Below are positions 41,284 through 48,831 of a DNA stretch of 64,000 nt, in pieces. Origin of the DNA: a virus (Duplodnaviria; Caudoviricetes); IMG/VR virus record IMGVR_UViG_3300028048_000055, positions 1 to 64,000 of that record; one strand, 5' to 3'. Positions within the stretch are counted from its first letter, which is position 1. Every line of letters begins with the position of its first letter. The notes beneath the pieces are model-generated. The model was not told the origin of the DNA. It was given only the letters and a program-made list of their open reading frames with translations, and made no database searches. A program made the position numbers and the translations under genes.

Positions 41284-41913
41284 ATGGCAAGAAAGAAAAG
41301 CGAAAATTGTTCAGATGTAATTCAGATTCTAGGCGGTGCTAATCATGATACCGTCCGTGAAGAAGATGATTTTTATGCCACTCCGACAATAGCTGTTCAA
41401 AAACTTATCGATTCTTTTGGTTCTGTATTGAAAATCGGTAATGCAACAATATTTGATCCGTGTGTAGGTAAAGGTCATATCTTAAAGCCGTTCAGGGATC
41501 AAAAATACAATGTTGATGGAACAGATTTAATATCAAGAACTGATTTATGGGATTCACATATTGAATATCAAGGCGGTCAGGATTTTTTGAGCAGAATAGA
41601 ACCTCTTCATGGTTGTAATATCGTAACAAATCCGCCATATAAGATTTGTCTTGATTTCGCTAAGAAAGGCATAGAACTTATTGACGATAATCGTTATATG
41701 TGTATGCTTCTTAAGATTCAGTTCCTTGAAACTAAGGCAAGATATGAATTCTTTAAAGAATATCCACCCAAGTATGTCTATGTATTCGTAAATCGAATCG
41801 GTTGTATTCCTGGTGGAGAAACTGACATCAATAAACCGTCTGCTATTTGCTATGCATGGTATATTTGGCAAAAAGGATATAATGGCGATCCGATGATTAA
41901 ATGGATTGTATAG
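41284..41913 (+). CDS. DNA methyltransferase (amino-MTase)
   Basis: DFYATP, DPCVGKG, NPPY motifs. Confidence 0.85.
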   Translation: MARKKSENCSDVIQILGGANHDTVREEDDFYATPTIAVQKLIDSFGSVLKIGNATIFDPCVGKGHILKPFRDQKYNVDGTDLISRTDLWDSHIEYQGGQDFLSRIEPLHGCNIVTNPPYKICLDFAKKGIELIDDNRYMCMLLKIQFLETKARYEFFKEYPPKYVYVFVNRIGCIPGGETDINKPSAICYAWYIWQKGYNGDPMIKWIV

Positions 41914-41921
41914 GAGATAAA

Positions 41922-42269
41922 ATGAATTTCAGTTATATTAATGATGATTTTGAATTAGAAGCATCTTTTACAAGTAATGATGCATTAAATGCATTTAATA
42001 AAAAGATTGTAGAATTTGCATATTATAATGATAAAACTCATACTGATTTCCGTGGTAAGCCATATATTAAGTTTGAATATAGTAAAGGTAATGAATTAGT
42101 TCTCTGCGGTAAAGATACTGATCAGCTAATTGAAATTCTTAATATGTTCAATGATGTTATGATTAATTCTAGTGAACTTAATAAGTATAATATTGAAACA
42201 TATAAAGAATATGTACGGAAAGCTGCAAAAGAAGAAAAAGAAAACGGAATAAAAATTATTTCATGGTAA
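41922..42269 (+). CDS. hypothetical protein
   Basis: AGGAG SD. Confidence 0.6.
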   Translation: MNFSYINDDFELEASFTSNDALNAFNKKIVEFAYYNDKTHTDFRGKPYIKFEYSKGNELVLCGKDTDQLIEILNMFNDVMINSSELNKYNIETYKEYVRKAAKEEKENGIKIISW

Positions 42270-42317
42270 GGGTTTACAAAACAAGAAATAATTACTATAT
42301 TATATGATGTTGATTGT

Positions 42318-42437
42318 GAATGTCTGATAGACGATCAATAAAATGAAGTAAGAACAGTTGTTAGTGGTTAACCTGCAAATTACCGGTAGGTCTGGTCTTA
42401 CATGAGGGTGACGAATCGGTATTCCTTCAAGACATTC
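42318..42437 (+). ncRNA. rod-shaped ncRNA with central bubble (6S-like candidate)
   Basis: own promoter 42273-42301; GAATGTCT/AGACATTC and CGAT/ATCG outer stems, 12-13 nt bubble, GTAAGA/TCTTAC inner stem. Confidence 0.45.
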
Positions 42438-42451
42438 TTTAAAAATAGGGG

Positions 42452-42480
42452 TTTACAAAACAAGAAAAAATTTCTATATT
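42452..42480 (+). promoter_or_regulatory. sigma70-type promoter of tRNA block 1
   Basis: TTTACA-N17-TATATT. Confidence 0.8.
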
Positions 42481-42542
42481 AATCAACGTAAAAACGAAAA
42501 ATGAAAAAAAGTTTTTATATATAATATAAAATGAGGATGAAA

Positions 42543-42605
42543 ATGCAATTAGTAATAACAACAAACATGACACCAGTCAATAATCCAAAGGTAACTTTCG
42601 ATTAG
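42543..42605 (+). CDS. attenuator leader peptide 1 MQLVITTNMTPVNNPKVTFD
   Basis: GAGG SD; T/N/V/P/M-rich, matching downstream tRNAs. Confidence 0.85.
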   Translation: MQLVITTNMTPVNNPKVTFD

Positions 42606-42631
42606 TTTGTTTCATTACTCGATTTCATTTG

Positions 42632-42666
42632 AATCCTGTATGAGACAAACTCAAACAGGATTTTTT
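42632..42666 (+). terminator. attenuator terminator 1
   Basis: AATCCTGT...ACAGGATT plus T tract. Confidence 0.85.
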
Positions 42667-42680
42667 AATTTTCCTTTTAT

Positions 42681-42994
42681 TGTTCCATAGCTCAGTTGGT
42701 AGAGCGACGGACTGTTTGAAATAGACACTTATATTGGAAACGATATATGAAAATCATCGCTAAGTCGGTGAAACCTGTAAAATGGCAACGCCGAGCAAGG
42801 ATTAGAAATAATCTATGTGTAGAGACTTTATACGATGAGCCTAAGTCAGTAATGATATGGCTAAGACAAAGTCCAGACTACAAACGAGTGTCCAATTTGC
42901 GCGGTGGGGGGCTTAACACCCATGCGGATGCTTGGTAACGAAAGTTATAGTAGTATGAATCCGTTGGTCCCTGGTTCGAGTCCAGGTGGAACAG
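42681..42994 (+). tRNA. tRNA-Asn(GTT) interrupted by a group I intron
   Basis: exon1 42681-42716, exon2 42958-42994 form a perfect cloverleaf. Confidence 0.92.
42717..42957 (+). ncRNA. group I intron (241 nt, no ORF)
   Basis: U.G pair at the 5' splice site in P1, terminal G, core elements TCGGTGAAACC, AACGCCGAGC, GTAGAGACT, AAGACAAAGTCC. Confidence 0.9.
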
Positions 42995-43000
42995 CTAACA

Positions 43001-43130
43001 CTTAGACAGTAATTGTTCATTGTTACAACGTTATTGTTACGCACGATGAAATTCATGCAAGTTTGGAATCGACAATATTTTGTTAATTCTGGGTAAAGTT
43101 TCAATGAATAGCGGGTGATTATTATCTAAG
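43001..43130 (+). ncRNA. unknown rod-like structured RNA
   Basis: CTTAGA/TCTAAG, TTGTTCATTG/CAATGAATAG, TATTGTT/GACAATA pairings. Confidence 0.4.
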
Positions 43131-43135
43131 TAGAT

Positions 43136-43208
43136 GCTGATGTAGCACAGCTGGTAGTGCAGCGGCTTTGTAATCCGCAGGTCGGGGGTTCGGATCCCTC
43201 CATCAGCG
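43136..43208 (+). tRNA. tRNA-Thr(TGT)
   Basis: cloverleaf. Confidence 0.92.
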
Positions 43209-43214
43209 CTAAAA

Positions 43215-43330
43215 ATATTGTTAGGCGTTATTTAGAAGCTGCAGACTCTTTATAATGCTAAGCCGGGTGCAGCAACGGGATGTCAGCTGCGGGAAGAGCT
43301 GGTATAATCAGAGACCTCCAGTAACAATAT
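43215..43330 (+). ncRNA. unknown structured RNA
   Basis: ATATTGTTA/TAACAATAT closing stem, internal CTCT/AGAG, TTATA/TATAA, GCAGC/GCTGC. Confidence 0.4.
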
Positions 43331-43398
43331 AATTTTTACATTAGGTGGTAGTCCACTAGGAAGTTGGATCTCCTTTAAACCAACAAAAGAGAATTTAT

Positions 43399-43482
43399 CG
43401 CGGGATAGTCTAATGGTAAGATATTGGGCTCATAACCCAAGGACTGGTAAAGCTTGTCTCGGTTCGACTCCGAGTCCCGCTA
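43399..43482 (+). tRNA. initiator-type tRNA-Met(CAT) with 17-nt variable region
   Basis: C1xU72 mismatch, GGG/CCC anticodon stem. Confidence 0.85.
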
Positions 43483-43521
43483 TAGTTTAGAGCAGTGGTT
43501 AGCTTATATTATAAATATTAT

Positions 43522-44280
43522 ATGGAATTAAAAATAAAACATATATGTAAATTTTGTAATATGGAGTTTACTACTGGGGCACAATTAGGAACACATATTT
43601 CTAAACAATGTCTTAAAAATCCAAATAGAGGAATACAAAAGAATTCTAAAATTTGGAAATGTTCAATTTGTGGTAATGATTTTCTTTCACGAAGAAGATT
43701 ACAACAGCATCGCAAAGATGAACATATTAACGAAATTAAAAGCAAATACTATGGGTATCATCCGATATTGAATATACCTTGTCAATTTTGCGGTTTAATT
43801 TGTAAAAGAGCTCGTGATTTAACAAGACATGAAAAATTTTGCAAAGAAAACCCAAATAAACAAATTTGGCAAGGACATAAAACTTCGGATGAAACTAAAA
43901 AGAAATTATCAGAAGCGGCTATTAAAAATCTTAGTGGTACACATTGTAATTGGTTAAATAAAAAGAAATCTTATGCTGAAGAATATTTTGAAACTATATT
44001 TACAAATGCTGAATCACAATATCAAGTTGGAAGATACGTATTAGATTTTGCATGGACTAAATCAAAAATTTATATTGAAGTTGATGGTGAACAGCATTAT
44101 ACTAAAGAAGGTATCGAACACGATAAGATTAGGACAGAATTTTTAATAGAAAATGGTTGGAGACTTTTAAAAAGAATTAGATGGTCTGAATTTCAAAAAC
44201 TTTCTAAAGCTGAACGTGAAAATGAAATTTATAGATTATTACAGACTATCAAAATTCAAGAAGAAACTAAAACGTTATGA
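43522..44280 (+). CDS. Zn-finger + DUF559/Vsr-like endonuclease
   Basis: C2H2-like fingers, Y.LDFAW..KIYIEVDGEQH; TATAAATA upstream. Confidence 0.85.
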   Translation: MELKIKHICKFCNMEFTTGAQLGTHISKQCLKNPNRGIQKNSKIWKCSICGNDFLSRRRLQQHRKDEHINEIKSKYYGYHPILNIPCQFCGLICKRARDLTRHEKFCKENPNKQIWQGHKTSDETKKKLSEAAIKNLSGTHCNWLNKKKSYAEEYFETIFTNAESQYQVGRYVLDFAWTKSKIYIEVDGEQHYTKEGIEHDKIRTEFLIENGWRLLKRIRWSEFQKLSKAERENEIYRLLQTIKIQEETKTL

Positions 44281-44318: not shown

Positions 44319-44392
44319 CGGAGTGTAGCTCAGCCTGGTAGAGCATCTGCTTTGGGAGCAGAGGGTCGTGAGTTCGAATCTCGCTACTCCGA
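44319..44392 (+). tRNA. tRNA-Pro(TGG)
   Basis: cloverleaf. Confidence 0.95.
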
Positions 44393-44460: not shown

Positions 44461-44535
44461 CTCTCCTTCGCCTAGCTGGTCATGGCACTTGCCTTACAAG
44501 CAAGCAAAACCTTGGTTCAAATCCAAGAGGGGAGA
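44461..44535 (+). tRNA. tRNA-Val(TAC)
   Basis: cloverleaf. Confidence 0.88.
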
Positions 44536-44541
44536 TAAAAA

Positions 44542-44660
44542 TATAGCATAGGTAGTTCCTATTACTAAGCGTATAGCTCAACTGGTGGAGCAGTTACCGA
44601 AAGGTAAAAGGTTGTCGGTTCGAATCCGATTGTGCTTGCCATTCGATACTACCCGCTATA
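44542..44660 (+). ncRNA. TCCTAT scaffold copy 2 enclosing an anticodon-less tRNA body (44567-44641, GAAA loop, CCA)
   Basis: TATAGC/GCTATA, GGTAGT/ACTACC. Confidence 0.75.
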
Positions 44661-44796: not shown

Positions 44797-44862
44797 ATGA
44801 CTTACGTTATGAACACAAATAATACCAACCCTAATAATAACCCTGAGGTTCTACAGGATTAG
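44797..44862 (+). CDS. attenuator leader peptide 2 MTYVMNTNNTNPNNNPEVLQD
   Basis: 7 Asn, 3 Thr, 2 Pro; downstream tRNAs Asn/Pro/Thr. Confidence 0.88.
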   Translation: MTYVMNTNNTNPNNNPEVLQD

Positions 44863-44894
44863 TTTTGTTTCATAACTTGATGAATTTTTAAACT

Positions 44895-44934
44895 GGATCC
44901 TGTAAGATATTAGAACTTACAGGATTTCTTTTTT
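44895..44934 (+). terminator. attenuator terminator 2
   Basis: GGATCCTGTAAG/CTTACAGGATTT plus T tract. Confidence 0.88.
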
Positions 44935-45403: not shown

Positions 45404-46039
45404 ATGAATGAATATATATGTAAATTTTGCGGTAAGATTTGTAAAAACATAAATTCTTTAAAAAATCATGAAAGATTATGTAAATTAAATCCTAATAGAC
45501 AAATATCGCCATTTGTAAAATATAATGCAGAGCATGAAACAAGTTGGAATAAAGGGCTTACAAAAGAAAATGATGAAAGAGTTAAGCAAATGGCTGAAAC
45601 TATGAGTCAAAAAATAAGAGCAGGCCTAATACATAACTATGATCATCAAAAAGTATGGACAGAAGAACGTAGAAAAGCACAATCTGAAAGGAAAAAGAAA
45701 TTTTATGAAGAACACCCAGAAAAGCATCCTAATAGCTTAGTAGCTGGTGCACTTAATAAAATGACATATCCTGAAAAATTAGTTACTGAATATTTAAAAG
45801 AACATAATATAACAGCAGAACATAATTGGTATTTTAAAACAGAAAAATTTACAAGATATATAGATTTTTATATAGATGAATTAAAATTATTTATTGAAGT
45901 TGATGGAGAATATTGGCACAAAGATAAACAAAAAGATATTGATAAAGATAATGATGCATTAATGTATGGTTATAAAACATTAAGGTTAAAACCAAAAACA
46001 GTTATAACACAATTAAATGAATTTTTTAATATGGCATAG
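45404..46039 (+). CDS. Zn-finger + DUF559/Vsr-like endonuclease
   Basis: CKFCG..H.RLC, WNKGLTKE, DFY..IEVDGEYWH. Confidence 0.85.
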   Translation: MNEYICKFCGKICKNINSLKNHERLCKLNPNRQISPFVKYNAEHETSWNKGLTKENDERVKQMAETMSQKIRAGLIHNYDHQKVWTEERRKAQSERKKKFYEEHPEKHPNSLVAGALNKMTYPEKLVTEYLKEHNITAEHNWYFKTEKFTRYIDFYIDELKLFIEVDGEYWHKDKQKDIDKDNDALMYGYKTLRLKPKTVITQLNEFFNMA

Positions 46040-46222: not shown

Positions 46223-46882
46223 ATGGAAGAAAATTATATTTGTAAATTTTGTGGGAAACAATGTAAAAATGCTAATTCTTTACGAAATCACGAAAGATTT
46301 TGTAAAGAAAACCCTGAACACCAAGAATCTCCATGGATAAAATTTAATCATGAACGAGGCGCTTGGAATAAAGGATTAACTAAAGATACGGATGAACGTA
46401 TTAAAAAACGTAGCGAAACATTTTCAAAACGCTATAAAGGCACTGAAGAAGGGAAACGAATTTTTAGTCATCCGCAATCTGAAGAACATAAACAAAAAAT
46501 GCGTAAAATTGCAACAGAAAGACATTGGGGCGGTTGGCATACCTCAAAATCTATTGAATTTAATGGTATAAATTTAGATTCTAGTTATGAAGTTGAAGTA
46601 GCAAATCAACTTAATGAAAATAAAATAAAATGGGAAAGACCTACTTATTTTCTATGGGAAGATACTAATGGAGTAAAACATCGTTATTATCCTGATTTTT
46701 ATCTTCCAGAATATAATGTATATCTTGACCCAAAAAATGATTATTTAATAAATAATAAATCTAAAAAATTTGGTATTACTGATGTTGAAAAAATAATGAA
46801 AGTTGAACAACAAAATGGAATACGTATAATTATTTTAGATAAAGATAATTTAACATGGGAAAACATTAAAGAAAAGATTTAA
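46223..46882 (+). CDS. Zn-finger + PD-(D/E)XK (TnsA-like) endonuclease
   Basis: DSSYE, YYPDFYLPEYNVYLDPK; TATAAATA upstream. Confidence 0.85.
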   Translation: MEENYICKFCGKQCKNANSLRNHERFCKENPEHQESPWIKFNHERGAWNKGLTKDTDERIKKRSETFSKRYKGTEEGKRIFSHPQSEEHKQKMRKIATERHWGGWHTSKSIEFNGINLDSSYEVEVANQLNENKIKWERPTYFLWEDTNGVKHRYYPDFYLPEYNVYLDPKNDYLINNKSKKFGITDVEKIMKVEQQNGIRIIILDKDNLTWENIKEKI

Positions 46883-47904: not shown

Positions 47905-48507
47905 ATGACAGAATTACTGATTATCGCAAGTGTAATTACGGTTACAGTAATTCTTAGTTATTATTTCGGTATTCAGCTTTTATATAAGTATAGAAAAGGA
48001 ATAACGAAGATTCTTGGACTTATTACATTTATTTCTGTTATCGGATATGGAATGTATAAAGATTATCAAGACGAAAAAATTCTTGAAAATGTACTTACTG
48101 AAGTAACAACTGAAATTAATAGCACAGATAGAAGTATGTTAACTGATGATGGTTTTCATGAATTTGTGGAACATTTTGTTATGAAGAAAAACGACGTAAA
48201 TTTTAAAGTCGTTCCACAAATTGATACAGCAATTTTGAAAATCAATAAAGTCTACCAGAATGTACTTAATGACCCTGATTATAAGATTCTTATAACGAGC
48301 GCAAATGATTCGAAGTCACATTCGAAAAATTCTGCACATTATCGTGGTGAAGCAGTAGATATTCGTATCAAGAATATTGATCGACATTCGAAGAATGAAA
48401 TTATATCTACAGTTAAAGAAATTCTTGGAGATAGATTTTTCATATTGCATGAAGATCGAGGAAAACCCAATGAACATTTACATATTCAATTAAAAAATAA
48501 GGGTTGA
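47905..48507 (+). CDS. membrane-anchored peptidase M15/DD-peptidase-fold protein
   Basis: 2 TM; SAHYRGEAVDI...HLHIQ zinc motif. Confidence 0.75.
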   Translation: MTELLIIASVITVTVILSYYFGIQLLYKYRKGITKILGLITFISVIGYGMYKDYQDEKILENVLTEVTTEINSTDRSMLTDDGFHEFVEHFVMKKNDVNFKVVPQIDTAILKINKVYQNVLNDPDYKILITSANDSKSHSKNSAHYRGEAVDIRIKNIDRHSKNEIISTVKEILGDRFFILHEDRGKPNEHLHIQLKNKG

Positions 48508-48608: not shown

Positions 48609-48612
48609 AATT

Positions 48613-48734
48613 CGACGAGTAGCTCAATTGGTAGAGCACATGTTTTTTATACCAACCGCTACTTGGCAAACTTGGTTCCTATTAATTATGGAATAGGTCC
48701 ATGGGGGTTGTAGGTTCGAGTCCTACCTTCCCGG
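48613..48734 (+). ncRNA. tRNA-like RNA with a circularly permuted TCCTAT scaffold in place of the anticodon loop
   Basis: D and T arms intact; T-ACCAAC-C-GCTA-CT-TGGC-AAA-CTTGGT-TCCTATT inside the CATG/CATG stem. Confidence 0.65.
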
Positions 48735-48756
48735 TTATAAAAAATTTATCGCTGAA

Positions 48757-48831
48757 TGCTCTATCGTCTAGTGGTTTAGGACAGCCGGGGGTTAAACCGG
48801 TGAACAGTGGGTTCGAATCCCCTTAGAGGTA
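48757..48831 (+). pseudogene. aberrant Glu-like tRNA body, 8-nt anticodon loop
   Basis: GCCGG-GGGTTAAA-CCGGT; terminal acceptor mismatches. Confidence 0.5.

Follow-up and report, generated by a model that had tools for sequence, protein, structure and literature searches.

In textbook attenuation of the trp/his/thr type, as seen in the enterobacterial leaders thrL (which senses Thr and Ile), ilvGMEDA (Ile, Leu and Val), trpL and hisL, a promoter-proximal short ORF is rich in the codons that are sensed, and the leader RNA has four segments that pair as 1:2, 2:3 or 3:4. A ribosome at the stop codon of the leader ORF leads to the terminator, a stalled ribosome leads to the antiterminator, and in the multivalent leaders of this group several amino acids are sensed by a single leader. 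The genes that these leaders gate encode biosynthetic enzymes. In the case of the pheM leader of E. coli pheST, leader-peptide attenuation is applied to a component of the translation apparatus; here the gated product is an aminoacyl-tRNA synthetase, one amino acid is sensed, and the system is cellular rather than phage-encoded. T-box riboswitches, which also place a terminator/antiterminator switch before translation-related genes, sense a specific tRNA pool by binding the uncharged tRNA directly and need no ORF or ribosome.

The carriage of tRNA genes by phages, and the timing of their expression, are debated in terms of codon-usage compensation, host shut-off and escape from tRNA-cleaving defences. 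A full-text search of the literature yielded no account of leader-peptide attenuation of tRNA genes. The nearest case is the trn operon of Anabaena sp. PCC 7120 (PMC8421152, PMC10272220), a long tRNA array that is induced under translational stress and whose promoter is covered by direct repeats to which the ribbon-helix-helix repressor TrcR binds; the 2021 paper on this operon mentions no leader, attenuator or terminator.

The locus considered here consists of a 20-codon ORF, called L1, and a terminator, together designated attenuator 1, positioned upstream of the first tRNA genes of a phage. Like the enterobacterial leaders, L1 is promoter-proximal, is rich in the codons that it is proposed to sense, is embedded in RNA with the same four-segment pairing scheme, and would be multivalent. 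It differs from them in that it precedes tRNA genes, whose product would directly relieve the stall; in that the matching between leader and downstream genes reaches down to the choice of codon and anticodon; and in that it is phage-encoded and one of six parallel units, one of which is nested. It would resemble the Anabaena operon in keeping an accessory tRNA array off until translation is impaired, except that the Anabaena response is not codon-set-specific. Taken together, the anatomy, statistics, folding and conservation presented below argue, with a probability of roughly 0.7, that expression of the first tRNA unit is gated at attenuator 1 by ribosome-mediated leader-peptide attenuation of transcription, a multivalent switch whose signal is decoding speed. 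L1 is unrelated in sequence to the enterobacterial leaders: none of the Rfam models for Thr, His, Trp and Leu leaders or for the T-box matched within 42250-43400 at E values up to 1, the only matches there being to tRNA and, weakly, to a group I intron; across the whole window at the gathering score, only tRNA was found.

The phage is uncultured and is represented by a single contig of 165,061 bp (32% G+C), the first 64 kb (64,000 nucleotides) of which constitute the window. Encoded in the window are a T4-type terminase N-terminal domain, a metallophosphoesterase, a cytidylyltransferase-like protein and several zinc-finger/DUF559 endonuclease ORFs. The genome has at least 38 tRNA genes, all of them on the plus strand and within 42.6-63.2 kb. 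A search of GenBank phages gave no relative, only tRNA-level or intron-level matches, and an IMG/VR search with the protein of the neighbouring ORF (41901-42266) also found no relatives. The relatives discussed below are metagenome contigs from IMG/VR and JGI, two of which measure 424 kb and 416 kb. (A search with an exact 16-mer returned mostly chance matches; the true relatives came from a gapped pattern.) One short relative contig is labelled as sheep rumen. Two short contigs with L1- or L2-type leaders, L091 and L092 (1.6 and 2.5 kb), are binned in Acutalibacteraceae and sheep-rumen Elusimicrobia metagenome-assembled genomes; a host assignment from these two contigs only is unreliable, and they are probably mis-binned phage fragments.

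The elements of attenuator 1, in order along the DNA, are as follows.

42273-42301, plus strand: upstream tandem putative promoter of the L1 unit, TTTACA-17-TATATT (consensus scan, 10/12 matches)
42452-42480, plus strand: leader-proximal putative sigma-70-type promoter, TTTACA-17-TATATT (consensus scan; repeat families D1, D4 and D9)
42513-42537, plus strand: conserved TTTTATATATAATATAAA box followed by GAGGA, the box being repeated before leader ATGs
42533-42537, plus strand: Shine-Dalgarno GAGGA, 5 nt before the L1 ATG
42541-42566, plus strand: segment 1, from the L1 start codon to codon 8, predicted by folding to pair with segment 2 in untranslated RNA
42543-42605, plus strand: leader ORF L1, 20 codons plus TAG, MQLVITTNMTPVNNPKVTFD (ORF call; conserved in homologues)
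42604-42630, plus strand: segment 2 (folding), the first 12 nt of which (42604-42615) are the 5' strand of the antiterminator and begin in the TAG stop
42631-42663, plus strand: terminator hairpin (helix 3:4), 9 bp, an A/A mismatch, 4 bp and the loop ACAAA (-15.5 kcal/mol, z -5.8)
42632-42651, plus strand: segment 3, common to terminator and antiterminator (folding)
42661-42666, plus strand: terminator T-run TTTTTT, then AATTTT

L1 thus has the placement expected in an attenuator, as a short reading frame with its own ribosome-binding site, just downstream of a promoter and 5' of tRNA genes. Its codons are ATG CAA TTA GTA ATA ACA ACA AAC ATG ACA CCA GTC AAT AAT CCA AAG GTA ACT TTC GAT TAG. Both promoter modules are kept in relatives; that at 42273-42301 is repeated in the genome, and that at 42452-42480 is common to leaders L3-L6. 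Within the 165-kb genome the TTTTATATATAATATAAA box is exact at L1, L3, L4 and L5 only, with 1-2 changes at L6, and every copy lies just 5' of a leader ATG. No consensus promoter is present on the plus strand between 42480 and 46931, hence none between the T-run and the first tRNA gene.

Between the two tandem promoters there is a conserved structured RNA of ~140 nt (42305-42445), which has no Rfam match. Its helices show compensatory changes among relatives, for example CCUAC/GUAGG versus CUGGA/UCCAG.

Downstream of the terminator lies the first tRNA unit, block 1.

42681-42995, plus strand: tRNA-Asn(GTT), split, the first putatively gated gene, 14 nt after the T-run (missed by default ARAGORN; intron-less homologues in relatives)
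42717-42957, plus strand: 241-nt insert in tRNA-Asn after the anticodon, a weak match to RF00028 (group I intron; 27.7 bits, E 8e-5)
43136-43209, plus strand: tRNA-Thr(TGT), which reads the three ACA codons of L1 (tRNA scan)
43398-43483, plus strand: tRNA with anticodon CAT, initiator-like, with a long variable arm (tRNA scan, structure)
44319-44392, plus strand: tRNA-Pro(TGG), which reads the two CCA codons of L1 (tRNA scan)
44461-44535, plus strand: tRNA-Val(TAC), which reads the two GTA codons of L1 (tRNA scan)
44567-44641, plus strand: tRNA-shaped RNA with an encoded CCA and an anticodon arm capped by a tetraloop, at the end of block 1

The Asn, Thr, CAT, Pro and Val genes that the earlier note had placed behind the leader are therefore all found downstream of it. 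The Asn gene was missed by default ARAGORN because it is split by the insert; the homologous gene has no intron in relatives L017, L075, L078, L080 and L082, and in L081 its insert is a different one, which contains an ORF of 233 aa. The tRNA-shaped RNA at 44567-44641 was considered as a Phe(GAA) gene and rejected, since its tetraloop is GAAA here and GTAT, TTAT or CAAT in relatives; with a tetraloop on its anticodon arm this RNA cannot decode. Every relative retains it as the last element of block 1.

Several other features of the tRNA region may be recorded here. Zinc-finger ORFs lie among the tRNA genes at 43522-44280, 45404-46039 and 46223-46882, two of the three also having a DUF559 (Vsr-like) endonuclease domain, and ORFs at these inter-tRNA positions are present or absent across relatives, as expected for homing-type mobile genes. 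Farther along, at 48612-48831, a tRNA-Lys(TTT) with a 48-nt insert in its anticodon loop is accompanied by a tRNA with an 8-nt anticodon loop (gtta); these have a separate promoter at 48504 and no leader ORF.

The first indication that L1 is connected with the genes behind it comes from its codons. After the start codon, 13 of its 19 residues are N, T, P, V or M, relative to a genome background of 0.237 (binomial P 4.6e-5), and with Met left out 12 of the 19 are N, T, P or V (P 9.6e-5). At the codon level, ACA, CCA and GTA in L1 correspond to Thr(TGT), Pro(TGG) and Val(TAC) in block 1. The match is incomplete: 6 of the 19 codons (those for Q, L, I, K, F and D) have no cognate tRNA in block 1, and GTC and ACT are not strictly cognate to the anticodons UAC and UGU.

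The earlier note had proposed Thr, Asn, Val, Pro and Met as the sensed residues. The enrichment upholds the first four, but Met is doubtful. The CAT tRNA has the initiator features of a C1xU72 mismatch and a GGG/CCC anticodon stem (three G-C pairs), and the internal ATG of L1 (M9) is GTA or ATA, giving V or I, in relatives; both considerations argue that Met is probably not sensed. (In relatives, the CAT tRNA occurs in the long-variable-arm form together with an initiator-like copy of normal length.)

A simpler explanation takes the hairpin for an ordinary, leaky intrinsic terminator, or for a hairpin that serves RNA processing; L1 would be an incidental or separate mini-gene, and the tRNAs would be made by constitutive read-through with no sensing. 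This explanation gains something from the fact that Asn-rich small ORFs arise more easily in AT-rich genomes. However, when all 1,134 ATG ORFs of 15-40 codons in the six frames of the whole genome are ranked by their richness in N/T/P/V/M, the residues of the tRNAs behind them, L1 and its paralogue L2 are the top two. The arrangement of signals, with a conserved promoter 5' of the ORF and none after the terminator, is also unfavourable to a mini-gene that is merely adjacent to the tRNAs.

A further argument comes from the other leaders. There are six leader/tRNA-block units in the window, with the following leaders.

L1, 42543-42605: enriched in N/T/P/V
L2, 44797-44862, MTYVMNTNNTNPNNNPEVLQD: enriched in N/T/P
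L3: enriched in A/E/V
L4: enriched in D/R/G/K/H
L5: enriched in L/S/W
L6: enriched in Y/C/S/Q/M

When leaders and blocks are permuted, the true pairing is the single best of the 720 permutations, at both the amino-acid and the codon level, which again speaks against constitutive read-through. L1 and L2 differ in the expected direction: L2 uses ACT/ACC, CCT and GTT, and the block behind it has Thr(AGT) and no Val tRNA. Of the 9 conserved non-start residues in this pair, 6 differ at the third codon position only, and the changes at N, P and V are synonymous, as expected of a translated ORF. The L2 unit (44797-44934) has neither a promoter module nor a TTTTATATATAATATAAA box of its own, which would make it a nested second gate inside the L1 unit.

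Folding indicates how L1 could be coupled to the terminator. The stem that the earlier note had described is a real hairpin, although it is longer than was stated, with 9 bp, an A/A mismatch and 4 bp. Also as had been claimed, a strand that overlaps the stop codon pairs inside the terminator: AGTTTGTTTCAT (42604-42615) pairs exactly with ATGAGACAAACT (42640-42651) to give a 12-bp antiterminator with one G-U. In ViennaRNA folds this helix is lengthened to take in GAAUC of the terminator 5' arm, so that terminator and antiterminator are mutually exclusive. The antiterminator has an energy of -16.6 to -17.0 kcal/mol (z -4.9), with 0 of 200 shuffles as good; when its upstream strand alone is shuffled, the native energy is attained in 1 of 2000 cases. 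The third helix, 1:2, in which L1 codons 1-8 pair with 42605-42630, has an energy of -21.1 kcal/mol and a z-score of -4.3 (MFE, 42538-42632). (The z-scores of the three helices are relative to dinucleotide shuffles.) Thus a terminator, an antiterminator that would be occluded by a ribosome at the stop codon, and an anti-antiterminator are each found computationally at L1.

The effect of a ribosome was modelled by masking the RNA that it would cover, and the masks flip the terminator and antiterminator probabilities with ribosome position. In the free transcript, the pair probability of the terminator is 0.96 and that of the antiterminator ~0. With masks ending at 42575-42603 (A sites at about codons 7-17), the antiterminator rises to 0.46-0.90, and with masks that extend to 42610 or beyond, which correspond to a ribosome at the last codons or the stop, the terminator is back at 0.96. 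Val, Thr, Asn and Pro codons account for nearly all of codons 4-17, and a ribosome that stalled in this part of L1 would leave 42604-42615 free. For masks ending at 42585-42595, the two structures are nearly equal at equilibrium (terminator 0.43-0.50, antiterminator 0.46-0.53). This near-equality is a point for a leaky terminator, and it means that the outcome of the proposed switch rests on assumed co-transcriptional kinetics. A findpath direct-path barrier of ~18.5 kcal/mol from antiterminator to terminator suggests that whichever helix forms first should last while the polymerase crosses the T-run.

The mechanism proposed for attenuator 1 would then proceed as follows. Transcription would start at the conserved promoter or promoters at 42273 and 42452. 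If L1 were untranslated, helices 1:2 and 3:4 would form and RNA polymerase would stop at ~42666. If L1 were read fast, the ribosome at the TAG would cover 42604-42616, the terminator would form, and transcription would again stop. When charged tRNAs for the L1 codons are scarce, whether from a mismatch between host tRNAs and the codons of an AT-rich phage, from host shut-off or from tRNA-cleaving defences, the ribosome would stall at Asn (AAC/AAT), Thr (ACA), Pro (CCA) or Val (GTA) with segment 1 covered and segment 2 free. The freed segment 2 would pair with segment 3 while segment 4 is still to be transcribed, and the polymerase would read into the genes for Asn, Thr(TGT), CAT, Pro(TGG) and Val(TAC); transcripts that pass the L1 terminator would also reach the nested gate L2. 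The tRNAs so made would relieve the stall and close the gate, a negative feedback that would match the supply of decoders to demand. In a Firmicute host, transcription-translation coupling may be poor, which would work against such a mechanism. As naked RNA is predicted to fold as 1:2 plus 3:4, an oligonucleotide on 42600-42616, which had been expected to increase termination, may change little in a ribosome-free reaction.

It could also be that L1 is translated and does sense decoding, but that its output is Rho access, RNase cleavage or the stability of the tRNA precursors instead of intrinsic termination. Precursors of tRNAs are untranslated and generally exposed to Rho and RNases, and codon matching alone cannot separate the possible output steps. 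This variant is nonetheless quite unlikely, given that the hairpin is canonical and has a T-run (z -5.8), that a helix of similar strength competes with it and would be occluded by the stop-codon ribosome, and that this geometry is repeated in L2-L6.

In L2-L5 the terminator 5' arm has its partner in the final two to four codons of the leader (in L2, the strand is the last codons, CTA CAG GAT), and in L6 it has its partner in the stop region; the energies of the alternative folds lie in the best 0-4% of shuffles in all five. In L1, unlike its siblings, the first nucleotides of the antiterminator strand belong to the stop codon, and the partner of this strand is the upper half of the terminator. 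With simple static masks, the terminator is kept in L3-L5 and the antiterminator is never the minimum-energy fold; the antiterminators of these three emerge only when the terminator 3' arm is omitted, as in a co-transcriptional view. In all six units the antiterminator strand lies exactly under a ribosome at the stop codon, a position that a plain leaky terminator does not account for.

L1 is present in 9 distinct metagenomic homologues, in which the start, frame, stop, terminator and T-run are all kept; the terminator hairpin is nearly invariant and the T-run is invariant. The homologous peptides begin MQLVITTNMT..., MQLVVTTNVT..., MQSIVTTNVT... and MQSIVTTNIT.... The blocks behind them always contain Asn, Pro(TGG), Thr(TGT), one or two CAT tRNAs, Val(TAC) and the anticodon-less RNA, while differing in gene order, introns and inserted endonuclease ORFs. 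In a more distant clade, a single N/T/P leader with mixed ACA and ACY codons precedes Asn, Pro and both Thr tRNAs, and Val(TAC) and Phe(GAA) are positioned behind an L3 leader rich in A/E/F/V/I. Pairing in the three helices is kept in 94.6-98% of cells across relatives (94.6% for segment 1:2). No compensatory double changes were found in these helices among homologues that are 95% identical and were retrieved with a pattern that fixed parts of the helices. Such a lack of covariation is again a point for a leaky terminator or processing hairpin; weighed against the codon statistics, the pairing of leaders with blocks, the promoter arrangement and the position of the antiterminator strand, however, that explanation is unlikely.

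Conservation of the peptide itself invites a different reading. The C-terminal half of L1 is invariant in all L1 homologues, including third codon positions, and its C-terminus, NNP(K/E)Vxx-D-stop (NNPxVxxD*), is common to L1 and L2. A peptide that acts by itself, as a nascent-chain arrest motif or a small effector responding to something other than tRNA supply, would show such a pattern. Yet L3-L6 have the same promoter, Shine-Dalgarno box and terminator design with unrelated C-termini, and RNA pairing also explains the invariance, as folding places a hairpin at 42581-42604 that adjoins the antiterminator. An acting peptide is accordingly a highly improbable explanation.

For attenuator 1, then, every sequence-level feature required of a ribosome-mediated attenuator is found, which supports the attenuator reading given in the earlier note. 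Beyond this single locus, it is on balance probable that in this phage and in its whole clade of large rumen phages the tRNA blocks are codon-specific supply-on-demand circuits. Each block would lie behind a translated 'checklist' ORF of its own codons, and a shortage of any listed decoder would open exactly that block, with attenuator 1 as the outer gate of the series L1-block 1-L2-block 2. If this is true, tRNA genes would for the first time be seen under the control of leader-peptide attenuation, and the reach of the textbook mechanism would grow to include viruses and target genes of a new class. The leader would be a compact natural sensor of codon-specific translation speed, giving the phage a built-in read-out of the codons that limit its translation, for example after host tRNA cleavage. 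The phage itself would then measure decoding speed and top up the limiting decoders only.
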